Origin: an uncultured delta proteobacterium
GTDB lineage: Bacteria > Desulfobacterota > BSN033 > UBA1163
Assembly: GCA_963827685.1 (NCBI GenBank)
Contig: CAWHBU010000003.1
Coordinates: 64,001-128,000 of the forward strand
Direction of reading: 5' to 3'
Length of the DNA stretch: 64,000 nt
A program made the translations under genes and the position numbers. Below are positions 1-26,622 of this stretch, in pieces. A model generated the notes under the pieces. It was not told where the DNA came from. It did not search any database and saw nothing but the letters and a program-made list of their open reading frames with translations. Every line of letters starts with the position of its first letter. Positions within the stretch are counted from its first letter, which is position 1.

Positions 1-1
1 C

Positions 2-1153
2 ATTGGCTCGGGTGAAAATGTGGTCAAGGTCGGTGGAGAAACGGTTTTGTTCCGCCACGAAAAGACCTTCGTCAACAAACCCGGTGTTGCTATTCTGATT
101 AGTGATACCATGCCAGAGGCGGAGGTCAATGCCCGCTTGAAACGATTCAAGGAATTGAAATATGAAAGGGTCGGCCTCACCTTGCGGCCGGAGTTGGTTG
201 CGATCAAGAACGAATCGGGTGATCCCGGAAAATTTGAAGCCTTGATCAAAAAGGTGAAAGGTGAAACCGATGCTGCCCTCATCCTGATAAGCGACAAGGT
301 GGATGCCTTGACCGCAGGGGTGAAGGCTTGCGCGGATCGTGTTCCATTGATCTACGCGGCAACCGATGGCAACAGCGATGCCTTAGCCAGTTTAGCCAAG
401 GAAAACAAATGTCCATTAGCAATCAAAGCCGATAATCTTGATGCATTGATTGCACTTTCAGACAAACTGACCAAAGCGGGGTTAAAAGATCTTGTGATTG
501 ATTCTGGGGCGAGGACGTTGCGCAAAGCCTTTGAGGACCAAATCTATATCCGCCGGGCGGCCCTCAACCAAAAAAACCGTTCCCTCGGATTCCCAACAAT
601 TACCTTCCCTTGTGAAATGACGAAAGATCCGCTGAAGGAGGCCTTGATTGCAGCAACTTTTATATCTAAATATGCAGGCATCATCGTCCTTTCTGATTTC
701 CAGGGTGAAAGCATCTTCCCCCTCCTCGTGGAACGGCTAAATATTTATACCGACCCCCAGCGGCCCATGATGATGCAGCAAGGAATCTACCCCATTGGCA
801 ACCCGACAGACGCTTCTCCAGTTCTCATCACGACCAACTTCTCCCTGACCTATTTTATCGTCTCCGGTGAGATCGAATCGAGTCGAGTGGCGAGCTGGCT
901 TTTGGTGATGGATACCGAAGGGCTATCGGTTCTGACCGCCTGGGCAGCAGGAAAATTTGTGGGCGATGCAATCGGTGCCTTTGTTAAGAAGAGTGGCATC
1001 ACTGATAAAGTCAAGCATCGTCGGGTGGTCATCCCCGGAGCCGTTGCAGCCGTAAGCGGCGATCTCGAAGAAGAACTGGGTAAGGGCTGGGAAGTTAAGA
1101 TCGGACCAAGAGAAGCCGCTCACATACCCGCCTTTTTGAAGATGGGAGCCTAA
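2..1153 (+). CDS. acsC: Corrinoid iron-sulfur protein large subunit (CODH/ACS gamma), 5'-truncated by the window edge
   Basis: Frame open from base 2. Motifs GGETVLFRHEKTF, NIYTDPQRP, TTNFSLTYF, SVLTAWAAGKF, GPREA are typical of AcsC/CdhE. Confidence 0.95.
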   Translation: MGSGENVVKVGGETVLFRHEKTFVNKPGVAILISDTMPEAEVNARLKRFKELKYERVGLTLRPELVAIKNESGDPGKFEALIKKVKGETDAALILISDKVDALTAGVKACADRVPLIYAATDGNSDALASLAKENKCPLAIKADNLDALIALSDKLTKAGLKDLVIDSGARTLRKAFEDQIYIRRAALNQKNRSLGFPTITFPCEMTKDPLKEALIAATFISKYAGIIVLSDFQGESIFPLLVERLNIYTDPQRPMMMQQGIYPIGNPTDASPVLITTNFSLTYFIVSGEIESSRVASWLLVMDTEGLSVLTAWAAGKFVGDAIGAFVKKSGITDKVKHRRVVIPGAVAAVSGDLEEELGKGWEVKIGPREAAHIPAFLKMGA

Positions 1154-1157
1154 TACT

Positions 1158-1262
1158 GATTGCGGAATGTAGATTGCGGAATGCGGAATAAAAGATTTGA
1201 TATCCGCACTCACGGCGATCGGGAATCCTCAATCCACAATCCGAAATCCGCAATCCGCAATT
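1158..1262. repeat. Period-7 tandem-repeat hairpin (TTGCGGA / AATCCGC arms)
   Basis: gattgcggaatgtagattgcggaatgcggaat ... aatcctcaatccacaatccgaaatccgcaatccgcaat, between acsC and acsE. Confidence 0.85.
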
Positions 1263-1280
1263 TAATATAAGGAGGATCGC

Positions 1281-2183
1281 ATGTTACGTATAGGAGAAAA
1301 TCTTAATGTGATGGTCAAGAAGATCGGAACCGCCATGAAGGATAGAGATCCTAAGCCCATTCAGGAGCTGGCCATGGCGGAGGCCAAAGCAGGCGTTGAT
1401 TTCATTGATATCAATCTCGGACCTGCCCGAAAGGGTGGAGGAGAATTGATGGAGTGGATCGTCAAGGTCGTCCAGGAAGTCGTGGATACACCTCTTTACC
1501 TTGATACCATCAATGTAGAAGCCATCGAGGCCGGGCTCAAGGTTTACAAAAACAAGAAGGGAAAGGCTGTCATCAATTCGATCATGGCCCGTCCTGAAAG
1601 CATGGATGTAAAATTTCCTGTCGCAGCAAAACATAATGCAGGAGTCGTTGCCCTTCTCTGGGGCCCCTCGGGGCTTCCCCGGGATGCAGACGAAAGAGGA
1701 GTTCTGGCAGCAGAGTTAATGCAAAAATGTTTAGAATTCGGGATCCCAGGTGAGGATGTTTGGATGGATCCCATCGTCACCCCGGTGACCAGCCCCCAGA
1801 GCCAGGTTCAGGTCCCGAGTTGCATCGAATTTATGAAAATGTTTAAGGACCTTCAGGAAGTGCTCCCCGGGATGAGATCCACCTGCGGTCTTTCCAATGT
1901 ATCCAATGGAGCCCCGGAACACCTGAGACCCATCCTCAATCAAACCTATCTGATGATGCTCGAACGATATGGGATGGCCTCGGCCATTGTCGATGCCTTC
2001 GACGAAGATCTCAAAAAATTTGCGTCCGGAGGGCGAGCGGATCTTAGAAAACTTGTCTATCGTGTCATGGATGGGGAAGAGATCGACCTCAAGAAGCTGG
2101 GTAAAGAGGAAGCCGATTATGTGAAGACCACCAGGGTCTTGATTGCCAAAGCCCTTTACTCCGATTCATGGCTGGAACTGTAA
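1281..2183 (+). CDS. acsE: Methyltetrahydrofolate:corrinoid/Fe-S protein methyltransferase
   Basis: Pterin-binding barrel motifs IGENLN, DINLGP, LDT, INS, DP, GLSNVSNG. RBS aaggagg. Follows acsC. Confidence 0.92.
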   Translation: MLRIGENLNVMVKKIGTAMKDRDPKPIQELAMAEAKAGVDFIDINLGPARKGGGELMEWIVKVVQEVVDTPLYLDTINVEAIEAGLKVYKNKKGKAVINSIMARPESMDVKFPVAAKHNAGVVALLWGPSGLPRDADERGVLAAELMQKCLEFGIPGEDVWMDPIVTPVTSPQSQVQVPSCIEFMKMFKDLQEVLPGMRSTCGLSNVSNGAPEHLRPILNQTYLMMLERYGMASAIVDAFDEDLKKFASGGRADLRKLVYRVMDGEEIDLKKLGKEEADYVKTTRVLIAKALYSDSWLEL

Positions 2184-2206
2184 TAACCAAACGTTGACAT
2201 CCGTCA

Positions 2207-2290
2207 TTTAGGAATTGAGGAATTTGGGGATGGCGGAATCGATTGCCGTCATGACTCCTTAAATTCCAGATTTCCCGAATTCAAAAATTC
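2207..2290. repeat. Period-8 degenerate repeat hairpin
   Basis: atttaggaattgaggaatttgggga ... ccttaaattccagatttcccgaattcaaaaattc. Confidence 0.7.
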
Positions 2291-2310
2291 TGTATTTTTT
2301 CAATGAGGAA

Positions 2311-3234
2311 GTGCCTATGAAATCAGGAAGCCGTCTCGAGAGGGTCCTTGAAGCCGGACATTTTGCTTTCACCGGTGAACTCGGTCCACCCCAGGGAGCC
2401 AATGTGGAGGCCATCAAGAAAAAAGCAAGTCACCTTAAGGGGATCGTCGACGCAGTCAACATCACTGATAACCAGACCGCTGTCGTGCGAATGGCAAGTT
2501 GGGCGGCTGGCTTAATTGCCATCCAGGAAGGTTTGGAACCCAACTATCAAATGGTCTGTCGTGATCGTAACCGCATCGCCATGCAGAGCGATATCCTGGG
2601 AGCCTATGCTCATGGTATCCGGAATATGCTCTGTTTGTCGGGCGACCACCAACAATTTGGGAATCACCCTTTCACCAAAGGGGTCTTCGATATCGACTCC
2701 ATTCAACTGATCAGCATGGTCAAAGGGATGCGAGACAACAAGAAATTTCTGAATGGGGATGACATCGATGAGGCCCCTCAGTTATTCATCGGCGCTGCGG
2801 CCAACCCATTTGCCGAACCTTTTGAATTCCGGGTGCATCGTTTGGCGAAAAAGATTGAGGCGGGTGCCGATTTTATCCAAACCCAATGCATCTATGACAT
2901 GAAACGGTTTCGTGAGTGGATGAAACAGGCCCATGATATGGGACTGACTGAAAAGGTCTCCATTCTTGCGGGAGTCACTCCTCTTAAATCAGGCGGTATG
3001 GCTCGATATATGGCAAAGAATGTCTCCGGCATCATCATCCCCGATGAGATCATTGACCGAATTGTAAATGCCAAAAAAGCCGCGGAAGAAGGGATTAAGA
3101 TTTGTGTTGAGCAAATTGAGGAATTGAAGGAAATCAAAGGGGTTCGTGGAGTTCATCTGATGGCCATTGAATGGGAACATAAGGTTCCCGAAATTGCTGA
3201 AAGGGCGAAATTGATCCCGAGACCCCAGGTATAA
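2311..3234 (+). CDS. metF: Methylenetetrahydrofolate reductase MetF (paralog 1)
   Basis: GELGPP, NITDNQ, CRDRNR, LSGD, GAAANP, FIQTQC, GVHLM motifs. Confidence 0.93.
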   Translation: MPMKSGSRLERVLEAGHFAFTGELGPPQGANVEAIKKKASHLKGIVDAVNITDNQTAVVRMASWAAGLIAIQEGLEPNYQMVCRDRNRIAMQSDILGAYAHGIRNMLCLSGDHQQFGNHPFTKGVFDIDSIQLISMVKGMRDNKKFLNGDDIDEAPQLFIGAAANPFAEPFEFRVHRLAKKIEAGADFIQTQCIYDMKRFREWMKQAHDMGLTEKVSILAGVTPLKSGGMARYMAKNVSGIIIPDEIIDRIVNAKKAAEEGIKICVEQIEELKEIKGVRGVHLMAIEWEHKVPEIAERAKLIPRPQV

Positions 3235-3280
3235 CCGATGACGGGGAGATGGGGTAATAGGAAGATAAAGTGAGAAGGAT

Positions 3281-3952
3281 ATGTTCATGTACGATTTTAT
3301 TGGGAGTCAGTTAGTATCCATTGCGTTGATTGTATTTGTTTTGGGGTTTATCTACCAAGGGGCCCAATTTTTCAAATTGACAAGAAAGAAAGAGTGGATT
3401 TTGCCACCCTTACCTTTGGAAACAAAACCTAAGAAGAAAACGGTGGGACAATTCATCGTTTTCTGTCTCACCTCTCTCAACGGAACCCTGTGGAAGACAG
3501 ATCCCTTCATGACGATTGTGACATCCGTTTTCCACGTCTTTCTGATCGTGGTACCTATTCTTCTACTTGGTCATAATATTCTCTTCGACCAATCCTGGGG
3601 TTTTAGCCTTTGGAGCTTGCCTGAATCGATCACCGATGTCTTAACCGTGGTCGTTTTGGTCTGTGCGGCTTTTTTCCTTGCACGGCGTTTATTCCTCTCG
3701 CGGGTCCGAGCCGTCACGACGGCCTACGACTATCTCATCCTTCTCATCGCCATAGCTCCTTTCCTGACAGGGTATTTCGCCTATCACCAGTGGTTTGATT
3801 ATGATACGGTGATGACACTCCACATTCTGACAGGAGAAGTCATGCTCATCACTATCCCATTTACGAAACTCGGGCACATGCTCTTTTTCTTCCTCTATCG
3901 TTTCCTCATCGGAAGCGAATACAGTTTCGCAAGGGGAGCCAGAGCCTGGTAA
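3281..3952 (+). CDS. NarI/HmcE/TmcC-like membrane cytochrome b subunit
   Basis: About 5 hydrophobic helices with four candidate heme-ligand His residues (VFH...LLGH; TLH...PFTKLGH), the NarI-family pattern. Confidence 0.85.
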   Translation: MFMYDFIGSQLVSIALIVFVLGFIYQGAQFFKLTRKKEWILPPLPLETKPKKKTVGQFIVFCLTSLNGTLWKTDPFMTIVTSVFHVFLIVVPILLLGHNILFDQSWGFSLWSLPESITDVLTVVVLVCAAFFLARRLFLSRVRAVTTAYDYLILLIAIAPFLTGYFAYHQWFDYDTVMTLHILTGEVMLITIPFTKLGHMLFFFLYRFLIGSEYSFARGARAW

Positions 3953-3970
3953 CGGAAAGGATCTTGCGGC

Positions 3971-4384
3971 ATGGAGAACAGTATGTCCCATCAGGAATTG
4001 AAACCAGTTGATACAAAACAGATCAAAGAAATGCTCGATCGGAAAAAGGGCAAAATGAAACGATTTTTGTCCTATTGCGCTCATTGCAGTCTTTGTGCCG
4101 AAAGCTGTTTTTTATATATGGAGCATCATAAGGATACCCAATACATGCCCTCGTATAAGGCGATCAATTCCTTGGGCAAATTATATAGAAAAAGGGGTAA
4201 GGTCGACCGGAAGCTTTTGACGGATATCAAGGGCATCGTGTGGAGAAACTGCGTGCTTTGTGGCCGCTGTTATTGTCCAATCGGTATTCATATTCCCAGT
4301 ATGATTGCTTTCGCCCGAAGCATCCTCAGGTCTCAGGATGTCTATCCTCAGCTGGATGAGGTGTCGTCGGAGAGTTGGTTGTAA
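3971..4384 (+). CDS. 2x[4Fe-4S] protein resembling the N-terminal domain of HmcF/TmcB/DsrK, with no CCG domain
   Basis: CAHCSLCAESC and CVLCGRCYCP motifs, YMPSYK segment; only 137 aa. Confidence 0.82.
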   Translation: MENSMSHQELKPVDTKQIKEMLDRKKGKMKRFLSYCAHCSLCAESCFLYMEHHKDTQYMPSYKAINSLGKLYRKRGKVDRKLLTDIKGIVWRNCVLCGRCYCPIGIHIPSMIAFARSILRSQDVYPQLDEVSSESWL

Positions 4385-4416
4385 TACGGAAAGACGGTCT
4401 CTGAAGGAGAGGGGTT

Positions 4417-4824
4417 ATGAAAGGAATCGGTTGTAGGCTCTCGATGATCACGGTTGCTGCTCTCCTGGTTTTAAGCAACTCTCCTGCCGGAGCGCAACCG
4501 GATAAGATTGTATTAGATCATTCGAACATCTCCGGAGGAAGAACAAGACCTCCGGTGACCCTTCCTCACAATCGCCATGTTGAAGCAGGATTGTCCTGCA
4601 AGGACTGCCACCACATCTATGAAAACGGGAAAAACGTTCTGGATGAGAGTAAACTCGAGGAAGGCAACAAGAACATCCGTTGTTCCGCTTGCCATGCTCC
4701 GAAGTCCCGACTCAATCTGGAACAGGCTTTTCACAACCAGTGCTTAGGTTGTCATACAAAATACCAGAAGGAAAAGAAAAAGACAGGTCCCCGGTATTGC
4801 GGGGAATGTCATATAAAAAAATGA
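4417..4824 (+). CDS. Periplasmic tetraheme cytochrome c3 (class III)
   Basis: Signal peptide ending AGA-Q, PVTLPHxxH motif, four CxxCH (CKDCH, CSACH, CLGCH, CGECH). Confidence 0.92.
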   Translation: MKGIGCRLSMITVAALLVLSNSPAGAQPDKIVLDHSNISGGRTRPPVTLPHNRHVEAGLSCKDCHHIYENGKNVLDESKLEEGNKNIRCSACHAPKSRLNLEQAFHNQCLGCHTKYQKEKKKTGPRYCGECHIKK

Positions 4825-4926
4825 TTATGCAGATTACCAAACAAGATTACACAGATTTTAAAAGAATCGGTGGAATCTCGCTTTTTGAATCGGTGTAATC
4901 AGCGTCAGCGTAGCTGGAGGAAGAAA

Positions 4927-5601
4927 ATGATTGTAGGGGAAAGAAAACCTTTTGACGAGATCAAGGAAATGATGAAGAGCTTCAAGAAGGTTCTGAATGT
5001 GGGTTGTGGAGGGTGTACGTCCATCTGCATGGCCGGCGGCCAAAGGGAAGTGGAACTCTTAAATGAAGAACTCCAAAACGCCCTGAAGCGGGATGGGGCC
5101 TCATTCCAAGCGGATGGGTTCACCATCGAGCGACAGTGCAATGCCGATTTCTATTCGGAGCTGGATGAGATTGTAAAAGGTTATGATGCCTTGTTGTCCA
5201 TGGCTTGTGGAGCCGGGGTCCAATTCCTTGCCGACCGACACCCTCAAAAACCGGTGTTTCCCGCTCTGAATACCGTTTTCGTCGGCGTGGACCGGGATAT
5301 CGGGTGGTTTGAGGAAAATTGCCGGACGTGTCGTGAGTGTGTCTTGGGAGAAACAGGAGGAATATGTCCTGTTACAAGATGTGCCAAGAGTCTCTTCAAC
5401 GGCCCCTGTGGGGGAACTTCTCGAGAAGGTAAATGTGAAGTGAGCAAAGATACTCCTTGTGCCTGGTTTGAGATTCATAAACGCCTGAAGGAGCAAAACA
5501 GACTGGAAAACATTCTGAAGCTGAAACCCGCAAGGGAATGGCGAAATCAAACTCAGGGAACCCTGGTTCAGGAAGCCTATAAGAAAAGATATGCAAAATG
5601 A
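4927..5601 (+). CDS. metV: MTHFR small Zn/Fe-S subunit MetV (paralog 1)
   Basis: GCGGC, ERQC, ACGAG, CRTCREC, GGICPVTRCAKSLFNGPCGG motifs. RBS ggagg before ATG 4927. Confidence 0.92.
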   Translation: MIVGERKPFDEIKEMMKSFKKVLNVGCGGCTSICMAGGQREVELLNEELQNALKRDGASFQADGFTIERQCNADFYSELDEIVKGYDALLSMACGAGVQFLADRHPQKPVFPALNTVFVGVDRDIGWFEENCRTCRECVLGETGGICPVTRCAKSLFNGPCGGTSREGKCEVSKDTPCAWFEIHKRLKEQNRLENILKLKPAREWRNQTQGTLVQEAYKKRYAK

Positions 5602-5674
5602 GAGAGGTTACTGAAAAGGGGAATCCTTTCCCGCTTGAAAGAGTTCCCGTGTTTCAGGAATGCGTGCAATTCTT

Positions 5675-5712
5675 CGTGGAGCTTGACAGATTTTTCCACG
5701 AGGGTTTATAAT
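5675..5712 (+). promoter_or_regulatory. Consensus sigma70 promoter with an inverted repeat bracketing the -35
   Basis: TTGACA (5683-5688), 18 nt, TATAAT (5707-5712). tcgtgga...tccacga flanks the -35. Confidence 0.65.
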
Positions 5713-5905
5713 TTTATAATTTTCGTTTTCCATGCCCTTAAAAATATCCGTTCTCTTGGGCAATCGATTCATAAAATTAGGGTATTCGCGGTAGAAACTG
5801 ATGATACTTCCTCTTAAGAGGATCCTCGGATTCTACCTTATCCGCTCTTTCGCACGGGGCATGGGTTAGAACGGGACGACCACCATGCCTCTCGAGACGA
5901 TTGGA

Positions 5906-6042
5906 TAATGAAGCTCCCCGGCCACAAGCCGGGGCTTCCCGGGGCACGTAGTGGCGAGCGGAAAGCGAACCAAGAAATATCGTTTTGATTGTGCCCCATA
6001 ACCCCGCCTACAAGGCGGGGCTTACAGGGCACTTGCCGGTCA
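5906..6042. mobile_element. Non-autonomous IS200/IS605-like palindromic element
   Basis: Two similar hairpins in direct orientation: ccccggc-cacaa-gccgggg (5916) and ccccgcc-tacaa-ggcgggg (6002). No transposase. Confidence 0.5.
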
Positions 6043-6074
6043 CCTCCCTCAAGGTGGGAGAGAGGAGAAAGCCC

Positions 6075-6947
6075 ATGACATTTAAGGAACGATTGGATTC
6101 GGGAAAATTTGCAGTCGCCGTTGAACTCCAGCCCCCTAAGGGAAACGAACTCTCTGAGCTATACGAATATACGGAACTCCTCAAGGGGCGGGTGGATGCG
6201 ATCAATGTGCCAGACCTTCAGAATGCCATCATGAGGCTTGGATCCCTTTCGGTATGCACCCTGCTGAAGGCAAAGGGAATGGAGGTGATCTACAATCTAT
6301 CCTGCAGCGACCGAAACCGATTGGCACTCCAATCCGAACTCTTGAACGCTTCGGCTTTGGGTCTGAAGAACATTTTACTCGTCCAGGGCGACCCTCCCTC
6401 CATGGGGGATCACTTCGAAGCCAAAGCGGTCTTTGATCTCGATGTCACGGGTTTGCTCGGCGCTGCCAAGCGCCTCCAAGAAGGCTACGACCTCACAGGA
6501 AATGACCTCCAAGGAAAACCACAATTTTGTGTAGGCACCCAAATCAATGCAGCCGCCAAAGGTCATGTCCTCGATCTGGAGGTCATGGACATGGAAAAGA
6601 AGATACGGACGGGGGTCGATTTCTTCTTCACCAATTCGATCTACGATGTAAGCCTTTTTGAGCCCTTCGCCAAAAAAGTGGCACACTTCAAGGTTCCCAT
6701 CATCGCAGGCATCACCCTGCTCAAATCAGTGGGGATGGCCCGCTATGTGAACAAACATGTGGAAGGAGCTTCCATTCCCGATTCAATCATCGACCAATTG
6801 ATGAAGGCTTCAGACAAACAGAAAGCAAGTATTGAGATCGCAGGGGGTCTGATCAAGGCATTGAAACCACTTTGCCAAGGAGTCCAGATCATTCCCATCG
6901 GATGGGAAAAGCAGGTTCCTGCTCTTCTGGATTATGTAGGACTGTAA
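6075..6947 (+). CDS. metF: Divergent MetF-family protein (paralog 2)
   Basis: VELQPPKG, CSDRNRLALQS, QGD, VFDLD motifs; FFTNS replaces IQTQC. RBS gaggag before ATG 6075. Confidence 0.8.
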   Translation: MTFKERLDSGKFAVAVELQPPKGNELSELYEYTELLKGRVDAINVPDLQNAIMRLGSLSVCTLLKAKGMEVIYNLSCSDRNRLALQSELLNASALGLKNILLVQGDPPSMGDHFEAKAVFDLDVTGLLGAAKRLQEGYDLTGNDLQGKPQFCVGTQINAAAKGHVLDLEVMDMEKKIRTGVDFFFTNSIYDVSLFEPFAKKVAHFKVPIIAGITLLKSVGMARYVNKHVEGASIPDSIIDQLMKASDKQKASIEIAGGLIKALKPLCQGVQIIPIGWEKQVPALLDYVGL

Positions 6948-6954
6948 GAAGCAC

Positions 6955-7030
6955 ATTGCAGAATGAAAATTGCACAATTAGCGGCGGAAAACATTTTGCA
7001 CTTTGCACTTTTCATTTTGCATTTTTCATT
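6955..7030. repeat. Period-7 repeat hairpin (TTTTGCA family)
   Basis: attgcagaatgaaaattgcacaat ... attttgcactttgcacttttcattttgcatttttcatt. Confidence 0.8.
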
Positions 7031-7086
7031 GGATCAAGGTGATGCCAGGTTTTCTTGTCAACCCTGGGGAGATATGGTACCTTGGG

Positions 7087-9420
7087 ATGGAAATGGCTGC
7101 CAAAAAACAAACTCCGACAACAAAGAGAAAGAAAACCGCTGAACCACTTATCCTTGTCAAAAAGAAGGAAGTGGGGTCAGAGATGTTTCAATCCATCGCC
7201 GAATTGGGAAATGATGGGATCTTGGTATTTGATGAACGTCATCAGATCGAATTTGCAAATCGGATGGCTTCCGAGATCACGGGGTATTCGAACAAAGAGT
7301 TACTGAAGATGTCGGTCCTTTCCCTTTTAGGCAAACCCCATCCATCCTTTATCGAAGACCTCTTCATCCATCCTGAGCGTTATGGCGAAAAAACGTGTAG
7401 CCAGATTCAGCTGCCCGCCTCTAACGGGGAGATCAAAGAGGCTGAAATTTGTATCGCCTTGGCGAAAACACCCCTTGGAGCCCGGAAGGGTTATGCCTAT
7501 CTCCGAGATATTACAGAGTCGAAAAGAATGGAACGAAGGATCCAAGAGGCCACCCAACAGTTTGAGAAGATTGCGGAGATGGGTGACGATGGGATCCTGG
7601 TCTTCGATCAGGCTTTTAAGATCATTTTTGCCAATCAGATGGCCTCCGAAATGACCGGGATTCCCAAGGAAGATTTGATCGGAAGAAATTTCTTCTCCGT
7701 CATTGGTAAAGAGGACAAACAATTTCTTGAAGGGACGGTCACCCGCGGTGTGGGAATAGGCGAGAAGCTATGCACCGAAATGAATATCCTGACCTCTCAG
7801 GGCCACGTCAAAGATGCAGAGGTTTGTATTGCTTTGGCCGAGTCGGATACGGGAGAGGTCAAGACCTATGCCTATATCCGGGACATCACAGAACGAAAAA
7901 AATTCGAAAGGGATCTCAAGGACTCCGAGGAAAAGCTCAGAAACCTCTTCGAGAGGGTGAGACACGGCCTCTTCATCAGCTCAAAGGAGGGCAAGTTTTT
8001 AGACTGTAACCAAGCCCTTCTCGACATGCTGGAATACCCTACTAAAGAGGAATTTCTCAAAATAGATATCGCCCAGGATCTCTATGTGAACCCGGATGAC
8101 CGGAAAACCTTTCAGGAGAGAATCGAAAGAGAGGGTCATATCAAAGACATGGAGGTGGAATTCAAGAGGAAGAATGGGGATAAGATCACCGTCTTGCAGA
8201 CCTCTCATCCTATTAAGAATGAGAAGGGAGAGGTCGTTGGCTACCAAGGCATTAACTTAGATATCTCCGAGAGGAAACGGATCGAGAATCAACTTCGCGA
8301 GGCCAACGAATTCTTCCTGAACCTGATCGAAAGCTCTGTGGATGGGATCATTGCGGCGGACATGAAAGGCAATATCTTCATCTTTAACAAAGGGGCGGAG
8401 GCGCTAACCGGATACAAGGCAGAGGAGGTGATTGGCAAACTCCACATCACCAAGATCTATCGAGAGGGCGTAGCGAAAGAGATCATGAAAAAACTCCGAA
8501 GTCAGGAATATGGGGGTGTCGGAAAATTTATTCCTACCCAGATGAACGCAGTCAATAAGTTTGGACAAGAAATCCCCATCCAACTCTCTGCCGCCCTCAT
8601 CTACAACGGGAGTGACCAGGAGATCGCCAGTGTGGGTATCTTTACGGATTTAAGACCTCGTCTGAACATGGAGAAGAAGCTCCAAGAGACCCACCTCCAA
8701 TTAGTCAGCTCTGAGAAGATGGCCTCTCTCGGAAAACTGGCAGCAGGAATTGCCCACGAGATCAACAATCCTTTGGGCGGAATTCTTATTTACTCCAGTC
8801 TGATGATGGAGGACCTTCCCGAGGAGGATCCGCGTCGGGGAGATTTGGTTCGAATCGTTCAGGAGGCAGGCCGGTGTAAGGAGATTGTCAAGAGCCTTCT
8901 TGAATTCGCCCGCCAGACCGAACCGAAGATGGAGCCCACCGATGTCAATCGAGCCATCAGTGACGGCCTCTTCTTCTTGGTCAATCAGGCTTTATTTCAC
9001 AATATCCATATCGTGAAGAAACTCGATTCCTTCCTCCCCTTCGTCCGGGGAAATGCCGGCCAACTGAAACAGGTTTTCATGAATATCATTGTGAATGCCG
9101 CGGAAGCGATGCACGGCAATGGGACACTGACTATTACCACCTTCCGTGCCCCGGACCGGAAGACGGTCTTTGTGGAATTTGTAGATACCGGTGAGGGCAT
9201 CCCCGCAGAGAACCTCACCCGAATCTTTGATCCCTTCTTCACCACCAAGGAGGTGGGAAAGGGAACCGGATTGGGCCTCGCCACTTCTTATGGAATTATT
9301 GAGGATCACGGAGGGAAGATCAACGTAAAGAGTAAGGTGGGAGAAGGGACAACCTTTACGATCGAACTTCCCATTCACCAAGGGACCCAGGCTATCCTGG
9401 AGGAACAGCCAATTAATTAG
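7087..9420 (+). CDS. Cytoplasmic multi-PAS (4 PAS) sensor histidine kinase, NtrB-like
   Basis: Four PAS/PAC units, H-box [12 protein letters not shown]1/F/G2 boxes ([19 protein letters not shown]). No TM helices. Start codon uncertain (7087 or 7093). Confidence 0.92.
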
Positions 9421-9432
9421 ACGAGGTAAAAA

Positions 9433-9996
9433 ATGAATCCAGTCCAACAAACAAATCAAAAGGGGAATTCATTCCTGTTGGAAGTCGCTCAGGCCAGTGG
9501 TGAAACCATACAGGCTTGCTATCAATGTCAGAAGTGTTCAGCGGGATGCCCGGTGGCTTATGCTATGGATATCCTTCCCAATCAGATGCTTCGTCATATC
9601 CAGTACGGCCATCGAGAAAAGGTTCTCACTTCAAAAACGATTTGGATCTGCGCCTCTTGCTATACCTGCAGTGTTCGGTGTCCAAACAATATCGATATCG
9701 CCAAGATCATGGATACCTTGAGGAGCCTGGCCATTCACTCTGAGATCAAACCAGGGGAAAAGGACATCCCCCTGTTTCATTCTGTTTTCTTGGACACCAT
9801 CAAATCGAAAGGCCGGATCCACGAACTCAGCCTCATTATTCAGTTTAAGTCTAAGACCAAGGATTTTTTCAAAGACGCTGGACTGGGCTTGAAGATGTAT
9901 CGCAAAGGGAAGATCAAACTCTTCCCATCCAAGTTTGGAGGGGGAAAAGAGATCAAAGAGATCTTCAACGCTTATGAGAAAGGGGAGAGAAGGTGA
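9433..9996 (+). CDS. hdrC: Heterodisulfide reductase subunit C
   Basis: CYQCQKCSAGCP and WICASCYTCSVRCP. Confidence 0.93.
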   Translation: MNPVQQTNQKGNSFLLEVAQASGETIQACYQCQKCSAGCPVAYAMDILPNQMLRHIQYGHREKVLTSKTIWICASCYTCSVRCPNNIDIAKIMDTLRSLAIHSEIKPGEKDIPLFHSVFLDTIKSKGRIHELSLIIQFKSKTKDFFKDAGLGLKMYRKGKIKLFPSKFGGGKEIKEIFNAYEKGERR

Positions 9997-10844
9997 AAGG
10001 AATTTCTTATTACCCAGGATGCTCCCTCCAGGGAACAGCCGGGGAATATGACGATTCGATTCGAGGCGTATCAAACCTACTCGACATCCAACTCCATGAA
10101 TTGGAAGACTGGACTTGCTGCGGTGCCAGTTCGGCCCACTGCACGGATGAGGAGTTGGCGATCGACCTTGCGGCCCGAAACCTAGCTATTGCAGAAAAGA
10201 ACGATCGGGAACTTCTTGTCCCATGCGTAGCGTGTTACAGTCGATTCAAATGGGCTGAGAAAGAGTTCAAGGAACATCCGGAGAAAATACATTTTTCGTA
10301 TCGAGGCAATGTTCCCATACGATATGTCTTGGACTTTTTCTGTGAGGGGCCTCTCTTAGAAGAGATCAAGAAAAAGATTACAAAACCTCTCTCCGGACTG
10401 AAGGTCGTCTGTTATTATGGATGTCTTACGGTTCGGCCTCCGAAAATGACAGGTATCAAGGAATACGAAAACCCTCAACACATGGACCATCTCATGGAAT
10501 TATTAGGCGCAGAGCCCATTCCTTGGTCCTATAAAGCAGATTGTTGTGGGGCTAGTCTCGTCATGACTCGTACAGATATCGTCAGAAGACTGAGCGGCAA
10601 ACTCCTGTCGATGGCTAAGGAGGCAGAGGCTGACTGTCTGGTCACTGGCTGTCCGATGTGTCATGCCAATCTCGACACTCGTCAGGATGAATTAGAGAAG
10701 GAAGCTGGAGAAAATTTTAATCTTCCTATCCTCTATTTTACAGAATTAATAGGATTGGCTTTGGGGCATAAAGATGCAAAGAAATGGTTGGGCCACCATA
10801 TCACAGATCCCATTAAAGTATTACACGCAAGAGGGTTAATATAA
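9993..10844 (+). CDS. hdrB: Heterodisulfide reductase subunit B
   Basis: YYPGC, WTCCGA, YYGC, CCGA, CPMCHANLD CCG motifs; GTGA overlap with hdrC. Confidence 0.94.
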   Translation: MKGISYYPGCSLQGTAGEYDDSIRGVSNLLDIQLHELEDWTCCGASSAHCTDEELAIDLAARNLAIAEKNDRELLVPCVACYSRFKWAEKEFKEHPEKIHFSYRGNVPIRYVLDFFCEGPLLEEIKKKITKPLSGLKVVCYYGCLTVRPPKMTGIKEYENPQHMDHLMELLGAEPIPWSYKADCCGASLVMTRTDIVRRLSGKLLSMAKEAEADCLVTGCPMCHANLDTRQDELEKEAGENFNLPILYFTELIGLALGHKDAKKWLGHHITDPIKVLHARGLI

Positions 10845-10884
10845 TCGATTGCTTCAGGGTTTATGGGAGCATACATATACAAGA

Positions 10885-11022
10885 AAATTCCAAATACCAA
10901 GCGCCAAATTCCAAACAAGCACCAATTTTCAAAATGCAGAAGTTCCAAACAGACTGAAAGTTTTGAATTTGGAAATTAGAATTTGGGATTTGTTTGGGAT
11001 TTGGATATTGGGATTTTGGATT
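10885..11022. repeat. Long period-7 repeat hairpin (AAATTCC / GGATTTG)
   Basis: aaattccaaataccaagcgccaaattccaaac ... gaatttggaaattagaatttgggatttgtttgggatttggatattgggattttggattt. Confidence 0.85.
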
Positions 11023-11057
11023 TAAAACGACTGAAAGAAAGGCCTGCGGAGTCAGGA

Positions 11058-14000
11058 ATGATGAAAACCCAAATGCAAGACAAGGTTGTAGATAAAATAG
11101 GCGCCGTGATGGTCGTTGGAGGGGGCATCGCGGGAATCCAATCCTCCCTTGACCTTGCCGAATCCGGTTACTATGTCTACCTTGTGGAAAGCTCGCCTGC
11201 CATCGGTGGGGTAATGGCCCAGTTGGATAAAACCTTTCCAACGAACGACTGCTCTATGTGCATCCTTTCCCCCAAATTAGTTGAGGCAGGCCGACACCTC
11301 AATATTCAGACCCTCACTTACTCCGAGGTGGTAAAGGTAGAAGGAGAGCCCGGAAACTTTGAGGTCACGGTAAGAAAGAAACCTCGTTTCATCGATCCCA
11401 CAAAATGCACGGGTTGTGGAGAATGTCCACAGGCCTGCCCTGTTCCTATCAAAAGTCAATTCGATGAAGGATTGGTAGATCGAAGAGCCATCTACAGGCC
11501 TTATGCACAAGCCTTTCCCAATATTTTTACCATTGAAAAAGGAGACCGAGCTCCTTGTGGTCTCACCTGCCCTGCCGGGATCAATGTTCAAGGTTATGTG
11601 GCTCTGACTGGAGTCGGTAAATATAAAGAAGCCCTGTCACTGATCTGGGAGAATCTCCCTCTTCCAGGGGTCTTGGGCCGGATCTGTCCTCATCCCTGTG
11701 AAAAGGAATGTAATCGCAAGGATTTGGATGAACCCATTGCGATCTGTGAATTAAAACGATTTCTTGCGGATCGGGTCGAGACAGAGATTCCCATCAAAAA
11801 GGACGAAGCTAAAGAGGAACGGATAGCCATCGTGGGCTCTGGACCAGCCGGTTTGACCGCCGCTTCATTTTTGGCCCAGAAAGGATATCCCGTTACCATT
11901 TTTGAGGCCCTGCCAGTCATGGGAGGAATGCTCTATGCAGGTATTCCTTCTTATCGTCTTCCCAGAGATATTTTAGAGGAAGAGATTAAGACGATCCAAT
12001 CCCTCGGTGTGGAGATCAAGACCAATTCCCCCATCGGCCCCAATCTCACCCTCGACAATCTTTTTAAACAAGGATACCGAGCTATCTTTCTCGCTGTGGG
12101 CGCTCACCTCGATCAAAAACTGAATATCCCCGGAGAAGAAAATCCCCATGTGATTCCTGGTGTGGTTTTTCTCCGAAAGGCTAATCTCGGTCAGAAGGTT
12201 GAAGTGGGGGAACGAGTTGCAGTGATCGGAGGCGGAAATGTGGCCATCGATGCAGCCCGCACAGCCCTGCGAATGGGTGCCAAAGAGGTAACCATCATTT
12301 ATCGTCGATCTCGGAATGAGATGCCCGCCTATGAGGACGACATTGAAGAGGCAGACGAAGAGGGAATCAAGTTCCAACTCCTCGCCGCTCCCACCGAGGT
12401 CGTCTCCAAAGATGGGAAGGTTACTTCTCTCCGATGTATCCGGATGGAATTGGGTGAACCGGATGCATCAGGAAGAAGACGTCCCATTCCGGTTCAGGGA
12501 TCAGATTTTTCTGTTGAGGTAGATACGATCATCCCTGCCATCGGCCAGACCCCTGATCTCCTCTTCATGAGGGGAATGGAAATAAAAACAACTCCTCAGG
12601 GTACGATTAAAGTGGACCCCATTACTCTTAAAACCTCTAAGGAAGGTGTCTTCGCAGGAGGAGATGCTGTTTCCGGACCTTGGATTGCGATTGAGGCAGT
12701 GGCTGCAGGGAAGGAAGCAGCCATCTCTATCGACCGATACCTCCGAGGGCAGGATCTTTTTGAAGGAAGGCCAAAACCCAAACTTGAAAAGGCTCGATTT
12801 GAAGAGATCTATGCAAACCAACCAAAAGCCCTGAGAGAACGGATGGAGAGGATTCCCTCTGAGGAAAGGCGAAAAAGCTTTTCAGAAGTAAAGAAAGGCT
12901 TCACGGAAGAACAGGCAAAGAGAGAGGCCCTTCGATGCCTCAATTGTGGACTCTGTTCCGAATGCCTCCAGTGCGTCGCACTCTGCAAGGCAGGGGCAGT
13001 CAATCACCAGATGAAAGAAGAAGTTGTGAATTTCCGGGTTGGTTCTATCATTTTGAGCCCCGGGTTTGACGAATACGACGCAAACCGACTGGTCCCTTAC
13101 GGATATGGTCGATTTCCGAATGTCATTTCCAGCATTCAATTTGAACGGATTTTGAGTGCCTCAGGTCCCTTTCAAGGAAATCTCTTGAGACCGTCAGACC
13201 AGAAATCACCCCAAAAGGTGGCCTGGATCCAATGCGCAGGCTCAAGGGATATGACCGGAAACGGCGGGAATGAATATTGCAGCTCCGTCTGCTGTATGTA
13301 TGCCATTAAAGAAGCGGTCATTGCCAAAGAGCATCATCGCGAGGTGGAACCCACCATCTTCTATATGGATATCCGCGCTCATGGGAAAGATTTCGACGCC
13401 TATTATGAAAGGGCAAAGAAAGAATATGGTGTCCGGTTCATCCGCTCAATGGTCTCCCGAGTGGCAGAAAGGCCGAAGACAAAAAATCTGATCATCAGCT
13501 ATATCGATTCTGAAGGTCGGTTCAAGGAGGAAGGGTTCGATCTCGTCGTCCTTTCTGTAGGATTGACACCCTCTGAAGGTGCAAAAGAAATTGCCCAGAA
13601 TCTTGGTCTGCAACTGGATTCCTATGGGTTCTGCAAGACCGAGGAGTTCTCTCCGCTTCAAACCAGCCGGCCAGGCATCTATGTGTGCGGGGCTTTTCAG
13701 GGCCCCAAGGATATTCCCGAGACCGTAGCCCAAGCCAGTGGGGCAGTGGCGAGCGCCTCAAGTCTTCTTGCCGATGTCCGTGGAACTCTCACAAAGAAAA
13801 AGGACTACCCTGCTGAGATAGATGTTAAAGGACAGGAGCCCCGCATTGGTGTATTTGTCTGCCATTGTGGGATCAATATTGGAGGGGTCGTCAATGTCCA
13901 GGAAGTAAAAGAATATGCAAAAGCCCTGGACGGGGTCGCTTATGTCGAAGAGAATCTTTATACATGCTCTCAGGACACCCAGGAGAAGATCAAGAAGGCG

Positions 14001-15527
14001 GTGCAGGAAAACCAATTGAACCGGGTCGTCGTCGCTTCCTGTTCGCCGAGAACCCATGAGCCCATGTTTCAGGAGACTATCCGGGAGATGGGCCTGAATA
14101 AATATCTCTTTGAGATGACCAATATCCGGGACCAATGCTCCTGGGTCCATATGCATCAGCCCAAGGAGGCCACTGAAAAAGCAAAAGAACTTCTTCGGAT
14201 GGCCGTGGCAAAATCCAAACTCTTGCAGCCTTTGAAAGAGCCTGTTGTAGAGGTCACGAAAAAGGGACTGGTCATTGGAGGCGGGCTCTCCGGGATGAGG
14301 GCAGCCTTGGAACTGGCCCGACAAGGACTAGACTGTGCTCTTGTGGAAAAAGAGTCTGAACTGGGTGGGAACCTCCGTCACATCTATCACACCATCGAGG
14401 GCAATGATCCGCAGGGACTTCTCCGAAAGACCATCAGCGAGGTCCTTGAGAACCCTCGAATCCAAGTCTTTACTCAGGCGGAGTTGAAAAGCCTCAGCGG
14501 TTATGTCGGCAATTTCAAATCCATCATATCGACCAATGGTTCTGATAAAGAATTTGAGCATGGAGTGGTCATCGTCGCCGTTGGAGCCAAGGAAAGCACT
14601 CCAACGGAATACCTCTATGGCCAGGATTCACGGGTGATCACACAAAAGGAACTGGAGGAGAAGATCGCTCATCACTTGGACGAGGTGAATCGATGTCGAC
14701 ATATCGTGATGATCCAGTGCGTGGGTTCACGAACCCCAGAGCGTCCCAACTGCAGTCGGATCTGCTGCTCCGTCGCTGTTAAAAATGCATTAAGAATTAA
14801 GGAAAAGAATCCCGATACCAAGGTCACGATTTTGTATCGGGACATTCGAACGTATGGATTGATGGAACGATACTACACTCAGGCAAGAAACCAAGGAATC
14901 GAATTCATCCAGTATGAACTCGATTCAAAACCCGATCTAAGAGCTGAAGGAGGCCTTCTCCAACTTAAAGTCAAAGATAGAATCCTTGGCGAGGAGGTCA
15001 CCCTCCAACCCGATCTCGTCGTTCTTGCGAGTGCCATCATCCCTTACGAAAACGAGGCCTTGGCAAAGATGCTCAAGGTGCCTCTGACGGCTGATGGATT
15101 TTTCCTCGAGGCTCATATGAAGCTAAGGCCAGTCGATTTTGCGACGGATGGCATCTTCTTGGCTGGATTGGCTCACTTTCCAAAAACGATCAGCGAATCC
15201 ATCTCCCAGGCCGATGCTGCGGTGGCGCGCGCCACTGCGGCGATTGCTAAAGGATATGTCAGCGTTCTCCCAACTATCTCTGAGGTGGATCAGACCCGTT
15301 GTCTGGGATGTGGCCTCTGCGAACTGCTCTGTCCCTTCAGCGCTATCCGTGTGGTCGAAACCGAGAAGGGAAGTAAAGCGGAGACGATTGCTGCCTCCTG
15401 TAAGGGATGCGGGGTTTGCAGTGCCAGCTGTCCTCAGAAGGCGGTGACTGTGCACCACTTCTCCGATGAACAGTTGACCGCCCAAATCGAGGCCCTTGTA
15501 CTCGTTAGGGAAAAAGAAGCAGCCTGA
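11058..15527 (+). CDS. hdrA: Large HdrA (HdrL type) with inserted GltD/NfnB-like NAD(P)H:flavin domain
   Basis: GGGIAG, QLDKTFPTNDC. Insert APCGLTCPAG...GRICPHPCE...GSGPAG...GGGNVAID.YRRS. Then a second HdrA half and a C-terminal 2x[4Fe-4S]. Confidence 0.92.
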   Translation: MMKTQMQDKVVDKIGAVMVVGGGIAGIQSSLDLAESGYYVYLVESSPAIGGVMAQLDKTFPTNDCSMCILSPKLVEAGRHLNIQTLTYSEVVKVEGEPGNFEVTVRKKPRFIDPTKCTGCGECPQACPVPIKSQFDEGLVDRRAIYRPYAQAFPNIFTIEKGDRAPCGLTCPAGINVQGYVALTGVGKYKEALSLIWENLPLPGVLGRICPHPCEKECNRKDLDEPIAICELKRFLADRVETEIPIKKDEAKEERIAIVGSGPAGLTAASFLAQKGYPVTIFEALPVMGGMLYAGIPSYRLPRDILEEEIKTIQSLGVEIKTNSPIGPNLTLDNLFKQGYRAIFLAVGAHLDQKLNIPGEENPHVIPGVVFLRKANLGQKVEVGERVAVIGGGNVAIDAARTALRMGAKEVTIIYRRSRNEMPAYEDDIEEADEEGIKFQLLAAPTEVVSKDGKVTSLRCIRMELGEPDASGRRRPIPVQGSDFSVEVDTIIPAIGQTPDLLFMRGMEIKTTPQGTIKVDPITLKTSKEGVFAGGDAVSGPWIAIEAVAAGKEAAISIDRYLRGQDLFEGRPKPKLEKARFEEIYANQPKALRERMERIPSEERRKSFSEVKKGFTEEQAKREALRCLNCGLCSECLQCVALCKAGAVNHQMKEEVVNFRVGSIILSPGFDEYDANRLVPYGYGRFPNVISSIQFERILSASGPFQGNLLRPSDQKSPQKVAWIQCAGSRDMTGNGGNEYCSSVCCMYAIKEAVIAKEHHREVEPTIFYMDIRAHGKDFDAYYERAKKEYGVRFIRSMVSRVAERPKTKNLIISYIDSEGRFKEEGFDLVVLSVGLTPSEGAKEIAQNLGLQLDSYGFCKTEEFSPLQTSRPGIYVCGAFQGPKDIPETVAQASGAVASASSLLADVRGTLTKKKDYPAEIDVKGQEPRIGVFVCHCGINIGGVVNVQEVKEYAKALDGVAYVEENLYTCSQDTQEKIKKAVQENQLNRVVVASCSPRTHEPMFQETIREMGLNKYLFEMTNIRDQCSWVHMHQPKEATEKAKELLRMAVAKSKLLQPLKEPVVEVTKKGLVIGGGLSGMRAALELARQGLDCALVEKESELGGNLRHIYHTIEGNDPQGLLRKTISEVLENPRIQVFTQAELKSLSGYVGNFKSIISTNGSDKEFEHGVVIVAVGAKESTPTEYLYGQDSRVITQKELEEKIAHHLDEVNRCRHIVMIQCVGSRTPERPNCSRICCSVAVKNALRIKEKNPDTKVTILYRDIRTYGLMERYYTQARNQGIEFIQYELDSKPDLRAEGGLLQLKVKDRILGEEVTLQPDLVVLASAIIPYENEALAKMLKVPLTADGFFLEAHMKLRPVDFATDGIFLAGLAHFPKTISESISQADAAVARATAAIAKGYVSVLPTISEVDQTRCLGCGLCELLCPFSAIRVVETEKGSKAETIAASCKGCGVCSASCPQKAVTVHHFSDEQLTAQIEALVLVREKEAA

Positions 15528-15529
15528 TG

Positions 15530-15598
15530 GTGAATTTTTGATTTTAGATTGCCGATTGCCAATTTAAAATCGGAAATTGGAAATCGCAAATCGAAAAT
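15530..15598. repeat. Period-7 repeat hairpin (GATT.. / AAATCG.)
   Basis: gaatttttgattttagattgccgattgccaattt aaaatcggaaattggaaatcgcaaatcgaaaat. Confidence 0.8.
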
Positions 15599-15609
15599 GG
15601 GTGAATGAG

Positions 15610-16365
15610 ATGACTTTCGAACCCAAAATCTTATCTTTTCTTTGTAACTGGTGTGCCTATGCAGGTGCGGATCTGGCAGGGATTTCCAGGTTTCAATATC
15701 CACCCAACACTCGAGTGATTCGGGTGATGTGCTCTGGAAGAGTCGACCCGATCTTCATCCCAAAGGCTTTCCTGGCCGGATATGATGGGGTGATGGTTCT
15801 TGGATGCCACCCGGGAGATTGCCATTATCTGACCGGCAATATTCAGGCTGAGCGAAAGATAAAACTTACCCGAAAACTTCTGAATATGGCTGGTATTGAA
15901 TCGGAAAGACTTCTTCTGGACTGGGTCTCTGCAGGCGAAGGGGAACGTTTTTCCCAAGTCGTTCGTCAATTTATTGAGAAGATGAATCAACTCGGCCCCT
16001 TCCCTCTCAATCAAGAAATGAGAGGAAAACTTCAGGCGGTCCACGCTTCCTTGGAGGGGGAGAAAATTCGGTGGATGGTAGGCAAAGGGCCTGAACTCAT
16101 GGAAAAGGAGAATGTTTATCACGAACATCTCCCTCAGGAGAAGCTGGATGAGATCATCGAGGGAACGATTCGGGATGAATTGATCAAAAATCGGATCCTC
16201 GCATTGATCGAGTCTAAACCGCTGCCGGCAGCAGAGATCAGCCAAACATTAAATCTGAAATTGAATGAGACTCTCACCTATCTGGTTTCATTGGTGGGAG
16301 AGGGGAAAATAGGATTCGATCCATCAGAGGAAGGAAAGATCCCAAAGTATACGCGTAATGTTTAA
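15610..16365 (+). CDS. mvhD: MvhD/FlpD [2Fe-2S] subunit (Cys form) with a ~120-aa C-terminal extension
   Basis: FLCNWCAYAGAD, RVMCSGRV, GCHPGDCHY motifs; the tail ends in an HTH-like segment. Confidence 0.9.
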   Translation: MTFEPKILSFLCNWCAYAGADLAGISRFQYPPNTRVIRVMCSGRVDPIFIPKAFLAGYDGVMVLGCHPGDCHYLTGNIQAERKIKLTRKLLNMAGIESERLLLDWVSAGEGERFSQVVRQFIEKMNQLGPFPLNQEMRGKLQAVHASLEGEKIRWMVGKGPELMEKENVYHEHLPQEKLDEIIEGTIRDELIKNRILALIESKPLPAAEISQTLNLKLNETLTYLVSLVGEGKIGFDPSEEGKIPKYTRNV

Positions 16366-16373
16366 GTGGTTTT

Positions 16374-16408
16374 GTTTTAAGTTTTAAGTTTTAAGTTTTA
16401 AGTTTTAA
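16374..16408. repeat. Perfect tandem repeat (GTTTTAA)5
   Basis: Five exact heptamer copies between mvhD and hdrA. Confidence 0.95.
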
Positions 16409-16440
16409 GTCCATCGTTCATAGTTCGGAGTTTCTAAATT

Positions 16441-19524: not shown

Positions 19525-19544
19525 AGGTGGTGAGCGAGGAGACA

Positions 19545-20072: not shown

Positions 20073-20090
20073 TATTTTGGGAGGAAATCA

Positions 20091-20759: not shown

Positions 20760-20763
20760 AGAA

Positions 20764-20818: not shown

Positions 20819-20831
20819 ATGATTTTTAGGA

Positions 20832-26611: not shown

Positions 26612-26622
26612 AACGTAAAATT

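Follow-up and report, generated by a model that had tools for sequence, protein, structure and literature searches.

A real and conserved variant of the Tmc/Hmc-type transmembrane complexes, wired to methylenetetrahydrofolate reductase (MTHFR) of the MetVF type and apparently unpublished, was found in DNA from an uncultured delta proteobacterium of the Desulfobacterota. It is encoded at positions 2311-5601 of the stretch analysed here, 64,000 nucleotides (nt) of GenBank assembly GCA_963827685.1 (contig CAWHBU010000003.1, positions 64,001 to 128,000; G000:C3:64001-128000 in our numbering), which is called the window below and to whose first base coordinates refer unless a contig is named. The assembly comprises 5.2 Mb in 14 contigs and is 94.5% complete with 8% contamination. 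In this five-gene module the genes of the two MTHFR subunits, metF and metV, enclose three genes that encode a NarI-like cytochrome b, a short iron-sulfur (FeS) protein and a tetrahaem cytochrome c3. As to function, we infer that MetVF is very likely coupled, both functionally and physically, to the membrane module, and that the five genes probably specify one membrane-bound enzyme, a Tmc/Hmc-type conduit in which MetV and MetF would form the cytoplasmic catalytic module and from which the CCG domain is missing.

Gene organization of the module

The five open reading frames (ORFs) that fill 2311-5601 are all on the + strand: metF1, encoding the MTHFR catalytic subunit of the module (2317..3234); the gene of a TmcC/HmcE-like (probably NarI-fold) di-haem cytochrome b of 223 amino acids (aa), the predicted membrane anchor (3281..3952); that of a short 2x[4Fe-4S] protein of 137 aa, proposed as a cytoplasmic adaptor (3971..4384); that of a TmcA-like tetrahaem cytochrome c3 of 135 aa, predicted to be periplasmic (4417..4824); and metV1, encoding the FeS subunit of MetVF-type MTHFR (4927..5601). 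Alternative GTG starts exist at 2311 for metF and at 4870 for metV; the ATG codons at 2317 and 4927 are the likely true starts, because Shine-Dalgarno-like sequences are present at both and MetV homologues begin MIV. With these starts the intergenic gaps measure 46, 18, 32 and 102 nt, and no further + strand ORF of at least 60 aa lies between the five genes. Scanning for consensus sites gave no promoter-like match on the + strand within 2311-5601 and a single terminator-like site in the block, within metV, at chance-level frequency; a search of window positions 1-10000 against Rfam gave no match at E≤0.1. A first-pass annotation of this DNA, made from the letters alone, had described metF and metV as split by three tightly spaced, co-oriented genes, and all ORFs were found at the places it gave.

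Linkage conserved through rearranged gene orders

That annotation had also pointed to synteny in other genomes as a check on its reading. A scan with the FeS-protein alignment, one genome per species, gave 206 relatives, and the best 80 loci were used; neighbours were found by tblastn with the window genes, and genes less than 700 nt apart were grouped as a block. Synteny proved to be strongly conserved. Cytochrome b was in the block at 79 of the 80 loci, the one miss (L038) beginning at a contig edge. Module-type MetV was present at 77 (missing from L047 and L066, at contig edges, and from L025, which is not at an edge), as was a c-type cytochrome (missing from L057 and L063, at edges, and from L053, which is not), and MetF was present at 62. 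In the three genomes with a metF-less module that were checked, a MetF1-type gene of 74-76% identity was found elsewhere in each.

At least five gene orders occur among the lineages: metF-b-FeS-c3-metV, as in the window; acsC-acsE-b-FeS-metV-metF with a 16-20-haem cytochrome behind it; the Desulforapulum type, c3-metV-b-FeS-metF; a type that lacks metF, b-FeS-c3-metV, found in several Desulfobacterales, among them Desulfosarcina widdelii PP31 and Desulfocicer vacuolatum; and metF-b-FeS-metV. The gene acsC was inside the examined flank of 23 of the 80 loci. That the linkage outlasts such rearrangement is the strongest evidence that the module genes work together, and by these counts the tightest partner of the membrane genes is MetV, not MetF.

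The short FeS protein

The 137-aa protein matches Pfam Fer4_8 and Fer4_17 only; Pfam gave no match to the CCG domain (PF02754), and Pfam and NCBIfam together confirm the earlier description of a 2x[4Fe-4S] protein of this length without that domain. It covers just positions 37-154 of the 457 of the HmcF model, and it scores 80.3 bits against TmcB (NF045724, cut-off 735), along model positions 22-137 of 430 only. Eight cysteines are invariant (C36, C39, C42, C46, C94, C97, C100 and C102) and form the motifs CxxCxxCxxxC and CxxCxxCxCP, the second of which reads CxxCxxCxxxCP in the nearest full-length, CCG-bearing relative (P0122, 48% identical). The protein has no hydrophobic N-terminus.

The match to the N-terminal quarter of HmcF and TmcB is what would be expected if the gene had arisen by recent truncation of a full-length tmcB or hmcF and had lost its function, a possibility that the first-pass annotation had itself raised. 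The ORF is, however, similarly short (125-166 aa) at 80 of 80 related loci, with identities down to about 52%; at L089, where the frame had seemed to run on into c3, a stop follows about 126 aa. Of 681 candidates 75-240 aa in length, 666 proved homologous (E≤1e-3), and at least 120 of these measure 133-145 aa. The eight cysteines are invariant, and the next gene begins 32 nt past the stop codon, leaving no room for the remains of a CCG domain. Of 401 genomes sampled evenly across the phylum, 29 carry the short form (in open frames of 131-201 aa that score 184 bits or more), and the next matches, in frames of about 440-515 aa, reach at most 162 bits, so that short and full-length forms fall into separate groups. 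A decayed remnant is therefore extremely improbable, and recent truncation of TmcB was rejected on the short length at all 80 loci and on the protein's own invariant second motif. By these comparisons the short form is a separate, old subfamily.

A natural protein of 363 aa (P0121) consists of the cytochrome b at its N-terminus fused to the FeS protein at its C-terminus. This fusion supports a physical cytochrome b-FeS pair and places the FeS protein on the side of the cytochrome C-terminus; by analogy with NarI, the C-terminal face of cytochrome b with the FeS domain would be the cytoplasmic side. The AlphaFold2 (AF2) model of the FeS protein is all-helical (pLDDT 79.8, pTM 0.76). A search of the Protein Data Bank (PDB) with the FeS profile had as its sole match a spurious, designed repeat protein.

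The two cytochromes

The cytochrome b scores 198.9 bits against NCBIfam TmcC (NF045723; cut-off 240), so that equivalog level is not reached, and 180.1 bits against HmcE, likewise under the cut-off; it passes the Pfam Nitrate_red_gam (NarI family) cut-off marginally (23.4 vs 22.9 bits). Five segments of the protein are hydrophobic, and residues 28-75 form a loop rich in Lys and Arg. The earlier annotation had noted four candidate haem histidines in a cytochrome of the NarI/HmcE/TmcC type: all 74 homologues aligned do indeed share His85, His98, His181 and His199 without exception, and these residues match the FH, GH, LH and GH positions of E. coli NarI, which hold the ligands of the two NarI haems. 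The best eight Foldseek matches in the PDB to the AF2 model (pLDDT 78.1) are all NarI, with probability 1.00, E values of 5.6e-3 to 5.3e-2 (none at E≤0.001) and TM-scores of 0.44-0.48. The protein resembles NarI, the gamma subunit of E. coli NarGHI, in its predicted five-helix di-haem fold and in the aligned haem-ligand positions, with NarI as the top structural match, and differs from it in being about 17-19% identical in the structural alignments and in having c3 and MetVF, not NarGH, as partners.

The small cytochrome had been read as a periplasmic tetrahaem c3, and this reading holds: it matches Pfam Cytochrom_CIII (53.4 bits), carries four CxxCH motifs at residues 61, 89, 109 and 128, and has an N-terminal signal-like segment ending AGA/QP. 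Against TmcA (NF045722, acidic tetrahaem cytochrome c3) it scores 78.2 bits, under the cut-off of 114. Small c3 homologues in the related loci have four CxxCH motifs in 64 of 66 cases and five in two. At L054, L056, L061, L062, L065, L070, L081 and L090 a large cytochrome, encoded after metF, stands in for c3; it has 16-20 CxxCH motifs at most of these loci and six at L054. The loci with the large cytochrome may be regarded as an Hmc-like version of the module, by analogy with the relation of Hmc to Tmc.

Distinct subfamilies of MetV and MetF

MetF1 matches Pfam MTHFR (PF02219) with E 1.3e-39 and 136.7 bits (cut-off 24), and its matches to solved MTHFRs are weak but consistent (E about 1e-10). 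MetV1 matches Pfam DUF5981 (PF12225, the MTHFR C-terminal family) with 117.7 bits (cut-off 23); 13 cysteines of MetV are invariant in 26 homologues, and the MetV profile has no match to a solved structure in the PDB. Four MetV-MetF fusions occur among the 150 best MetV representatives. The genome holds a single copy of the cytochrome b, FeS and c3 genes and several MetV and MetF, including a second pair linked to hdr genes in the same window, to whose MetF (20832-21764) and MetV (20022-20759) MetF1 and MetV1 are 61.6% and 46% identical, respectively.

A MetV tree was built from 172 rows of 195-260 aa (74 module-linked, 4 of Hdr context, and 94 representatives from the library whose context is unknown) by a quick IQ-TREE search under LG+G4, with the Hdr-linked copy as root. 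One clade of 77 leaves (SH-aLRT 94) takes in every one of the 74 module-linked MetV, and outside it are 91 other representative MetV and the 4 of Hdr context. In a MetF tree of 88 rows, all from these loci and this genome and hence with thin outgroup sampling, 59 module-adjacent MetF lie on one side of a branch with SH-aLRT 99. Module-linked MetV and MetF thus appear, on these trees, to be distinct subfamilies.

These results bear on an alternative in which cytochrome b, FeS protein and c3 form an independent small Tmc complex that serves DsrC or ferredoxin and lies near metF and metV since genes of energy and C1 metabolism cluster. The three proteins are homologous to TmcABC and HmcAEF, the genome has dsrAB, and the MetV-FeS interaction is itself putative; all three points are in keeping with that explanation. 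It is nevertheless very unlikely, in view of an FeS protein without the CCG domain, the part that works on DsrC in the Tmc, Hmc and Dsr complexes, of a MetV linkage that holds at 77 of 80 loci through rearranged orders, of the separate subfamilies of the linked MetV and MetF, and of the position of the genome's sole copy of the module inside a metF/metV pair.

Comparison with known systems

The module shares with TmcABCD of Desulfovibrio vulgaris and with HmcABCDEF a periplasmic tetrahaem c3 (16-haem in variants), a cytochrome b of probable NarI fold and a cytoplasmic FeS protein whose N-terminal 2x[4Fe-4S] part is of one kind; the predicted topology is alike, and the best NCBIfam matches are TmcA, TmcC/HmcE and HmcF/TmcB. 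Unlike those complexes, it has an FeS subunit that lacks CCG and carries the second motif CxxCxxCxCP instead of the CxxCxxCxxxCP of the nearest full-length relative, and its conserved neighbours are MetV and MetF, not genes of sulfite reduction. By analogy the module would work like Tmc, yet it is no member of the Tmc family.

In having MetF (PF02219) and MetV (PF12225) in a Wood-Ljungdahl gene context, it is like the RnfC2-MetVF system of Acetobacterium woodii and the HdrCBA-MvhD-MetVF system of Moorella thermoacetica. MetV is presumably the module by which electrons enter MetF. The partner genes differ, being those of membrane and periplasmic cytochromes and not of NADH-oxidising flavoproteins, and the module MetV stands in a separate clade from the Hdr-linked MetV of the same genome. 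The first-pass annotation had named soluble partners for the characterised MetVF enzymes, in agreement with reviews, according to which a cytochrome-linked membrane MTHFR has been sought for decades, the enzyme was always found soluble, and acetogen genomes showed no sign of a membrane partner. For Sporomusa ovata, an MTHFR loosely membrane-linked via MvhD/HdrCBA is reported (Kremp et al. 2022, PMC9430772). A reversible MTHFR tied to a cytochrome/quinone chain with scalar proton coupling is proposed for S. ovata (PMC9430772) and for Thermacetogenium phaeum (Keller et al. 2019, PMC6895022), and in this the module is alike; there, however, the proposed link is MvhD/HdrCBA, the enzyme is said to have no transmembrane helices and a membrane-integral subunit is not known, whereas the module encodes an integral-membrane cytochrome b.

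No description of this gene set was found in the running text, as distinct from the figures and supplements, of the open-licence papers and preprints searched. A figure legend in the genome paper of Desulfobacterium (Db.) autotrophicum HRM2 lists 'MetF-ABC, methylenetetrahydrofolate reductase' with no accompanying text in the part of the paper seen, and its authors may have noticed the accessory genes.

Proposed electron path and the choice of partner

In the path that we propose, electrons would pass from the periplasmic tetrahaem c3 to the distal and then the proximal haem b of the NarI-like cytochrome, from there to the pair of [4Fe-4S] clusters in the 137-aa protein at the cytoplasmic face, and on through the Fe-S centres of MetV to the flavin of MetF and the methylene-/methyl-tetrahydrofolate (THF) couple; the path would be reversible. 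In the reductive mode, the c3 pool would bring electrons from periplasmic oxidation of H2 or formate to methylene-THF inside the cell, and as protons would be released outside and consumed inside, a redox loop would arise, with about 2 charges for every 2 electrons. In the oxidative mode, that is, during complete acetate oxidation or syntrophy, the membrane potential would help to export electrons of methyl-THF to low-potential periplasmic cytochromes.

The potential of the methylene-/methyl-THF couple is about -200 mV, that of menaquinone about -74 mV, and those of H2 and formate are below -400 mV; in the oxidative direction the MTHFR step is a thermodynamic bottleneck. Methylene-THF reduction by periplasmic H2 or formate is exergonic, and menaquinol is unable to drive it. 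Since the cytochrome c gene is near-constant and is swapped for an Hmc-like multihaem form rather than lost, the periplasmic cytochrome route is favoured, and a periplasmic cytochrome c is, by a modest lead over even chances, the main partner; menaquinone in that role is doubtful.

The corresponding alternative is that the module is a methyl-THF:menaquinone oxidoreductase that in sulfate reducers feeds Qmo/Dsr, with c3 as an accessory or as an alternative point of entry. Its attraction is that the cytochrome b is NarI-like and NarI is an established quinol oxidase, that oxidation of methyl-THF with menaquinone would be exergonic at the potentials given above, and that at L053, away from any contig edge, no cytochrome c gene lies beside the module. 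Methyl-THF oxidation linked to anthraquinone-2,6-disulfonate (AQDS) has, moreover, been measured in fractions of T. phaeum (PMC6895022) and in membranes of S. ovata (PMC9430772). We judge this alternative unlikely. A c-type cytochrome gene is in 77 of 80 blocks and is exchanged for a multihaem form instead of being lost, the closest named families are TmcC and HmcE and not NarI, QmoC or DsrM, and with NarI geometry the transfer of cytoplasmic electrons to quinone would be expected to dissipate membrane potential, although that reaction is exergonic as it stands.

Under the cytochrome c path, the module may tentatively be seen as a chemiosmotic coupling site of the Wood-Ljungdahl pathway, a redox-loop MTHFR moving about two charges for each methylene-THF that periplasmic H2 or formate reduces, which in reverse would use the membrane potential against the barrier to methyl-THF oxidation; we hold this reading to be somewhat less probable than its negation. 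The first-pass annotation had held that MetVF replaces the CCG module and wires the methyl-/methylene-THF couple to quinone or periplasmic c3 as a new site of energy coupling. The part of this claim that ties MetVF functionally to the membrane module has good support from synteny and stands; the docking of MetV at the CCG site, the choice between quinone and c3, and energy coupling stay at the level of proposals.

Distribution and points that weigh against the proposal

By NCBI label, 42 of the 80 module records belong to Thermodesulfobacteriota, 10 to 'Deltaproteobacteria' (mapped to Myxococcota) and 7 to 'Proteobacteria', 15 have none, and six are labelled Nitrospirota, Acidobacteriota, Fermentibacterota, Tharpellota, Spirochaetota and Lentisphaerota, one record each. 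These six singly labelled records are bins of metagenome-assembled genomes (MAGs), several of them on short contigs, and mis-binning is possible. In the window's own family the module is present in 5 of 11 genomes. Cultured carriers are Desulfosarcina widdelii PP31 and Desulfocicer vacuolatum DSM 3385, and Desulforapulum autotrophicum is represented via a MAG. The gene acsB was found in 270 of the 401 genomes of the phylum sample, namely in 25 of the 29 module carriers and in 245 of the other 372; as these genomes are kin to one another, the counts do not amount to a statistical test.

Several observations weigh against the proposed complex. Its distribution is patchy: 29 of the 401 sampled genomes have the module, only 25 of the 270 acsB-bearing ones do, and it is absent from the one other sampled genome of the genus, which is 100% complete. 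MetF is non-adjacent at 18 of the 80 loci, 12 of them off contig edges. MTHFR activity in this organism could be accounted for without the module, by a complete Hdr-MvhD-MetVF system 4 kb downstream. As cytochrome b, FeS protein and c3 all score below the TmcC, TmcB and TmcA cut-offs, the Tmc analogy rests on distant homology. That the five proteins form one complex, with contact between MetV and the FeS protein, is what we infer; no FeS-MetV fusion was seen among seven longer FeS relatives, of which the cytochrome b-FeS fusion is one, or in the 150 best MetV representatives, and the FeS model had no structural neighbour in the PDB by Foldseek at E≤0.001, SdhB chains of complex II matching it at TM-scores of 0.37-0.44 only. 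Prediction of a complex of MetV and the FeS protein from 26-row alignments and without controls gave ipSAE values of 0.12 and 0.09 (mark 0.32), which weighs neither way.

Four RNA runs contained 5-9% of the sampled words. Contigs from metatranscriptome libraries (wetland and soil) of relatives 88-97% identical cover parts of metF, the cytochrome b gene, the FeS gene, metV and metF2 (the MTHFR-like gene downstream, described below), and some bridge the metF-cytochrome b and cytochrome b-FeS junctions; such contigs of relatives establish neither transcription nor a single transcript.

Neighbouring genes and other energy genes of the genome

Upstream of the module on the + strand lie acsC (corrinoid iron-sulfur protein large subunit; 2..1153, cut by the window start), which matches Pfam CdhD (328 bits) and NCBIfam acetyl-CoA decarbonylase/synthase gamma (506.6 bits), and acsE (methyl-THF:corrinoid/FeS protein methyltransferase; 1281..2183), which matches Pfam Pterin_bind and scores 218 bits against NCBIfam PRK07535, under the cut-off of 259. 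The earlier placement of the module straight after acsC and acsE is borne out by these matches, and acsB lies just upstream of the window (G000:C3:62465-62929), so that acsB-acsC-acsE directly precede the module.

Downstream, metF2 (6075..6947, +) encodes a divergent MTHFR-like paralogue (Pfam MTHFR, 97.2 bits) about 37% identical to MetF1, and its membership of the unit is uncertain. A gene of this type lies downstream of the module at 22 of the 80 related loci, once only 56 nt past metV. In the window it starts after a gap of 473 nt from metV, and a perfect sigma-70 consensus precedes it at 5683-5712 (TTGACA, 18 nt, TATAAT; 12/12). Also between metV and metF2, at 5909-6042, is a repeat that is about 135 nt long and contains GC-rich hairpins; it is dispersed, with at least 30 copies across the contigs of the genome at 87-92% identity (blastn), and has no Rfam match; many metatranscriptome and metagenome contigs end at its borders.

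The second MTHFR system of the window is a complete Moorella-type hdrCB-hdrA-mvhD-metV-metF cluster at 9433-21764 (+). On that strand it comprises hdrC (9433-9996), hdrB (9993-10844), a gene for an HdrA/glutamate-synthase-like fusion of 1514 aa (10983-15527) that resembles the 'HdrL' described for Db. autotrophicum HRM2, mvhD (15577-16365), hdrA (16441-19524), a second mvhD-like gene (about 19602-20009), and the Hdr-linked metV (20022-20759) and metF (20832-21764) already mentioned. The mvhD-metV-metF part is duplicated on another contig (C4:127398-129982) at 98-99% identity. A histidine kinase of 805 aa, whose sequence suggests several PAS-like repeats, is encoded between the two MTHFR clusters (7003-9420, +), and a response-regulator/PAS/histidine-kinase hybrid follows the second (22329-23831, +); the two kinases may regulate both MTHFR systems. 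At 24675-27279 (+) a NuoF-like gene (Complex1_51K, NADH_4Fe-4S) lies beside one resembling the N-terminal part of NuoG (2Fe-2S, Fer4), and by its domains this pair looks like the diaphorase part of a soluble enzyme, either a hydrogenase or a formate dehydrogenase.

Among further products of the genome are a [NiFe] hydrogenase, the small subunit of which has a twin-arginine (Tat) motif and beside whose genes there is no cytochrome b gene, and a second tetrahaem c3, whose gene adjoins a ResB gene. Both are possible periplasmic partners of the module, and the gene content would allow electrons from periplasmic H2 to reach MetVF by way of the c3 pool and the module. The dsrAB genes lie on two small contigs, C11 and C12 (6971 and 4194 bases); dsrA and dsrB of the two give near-identical scores, with one TAA stop in each dsrA match, a pattern for which strain duplication, or the contamination of the assembly (8%), may account.

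Implications

The conserved operon offers a concrete candidate for the membrane link of MTHFR, and one that is testable since cultured strains carry the module. If the proposal is true, the Tmc/Hmc family of transmembrane conduits would gain a new output module, and calculations of ATP yield would change for complete-oxidising and autotrophic sulfate reducers and for the syntrophs of wetlands and peat. Should the module also act as a coupling site, its reverse operation would help those Desulfobacterota that are complete-oxidising sulfate reducers or oxidise acetate syntrophically to overcome the barrier to methyl-THF oxidation.

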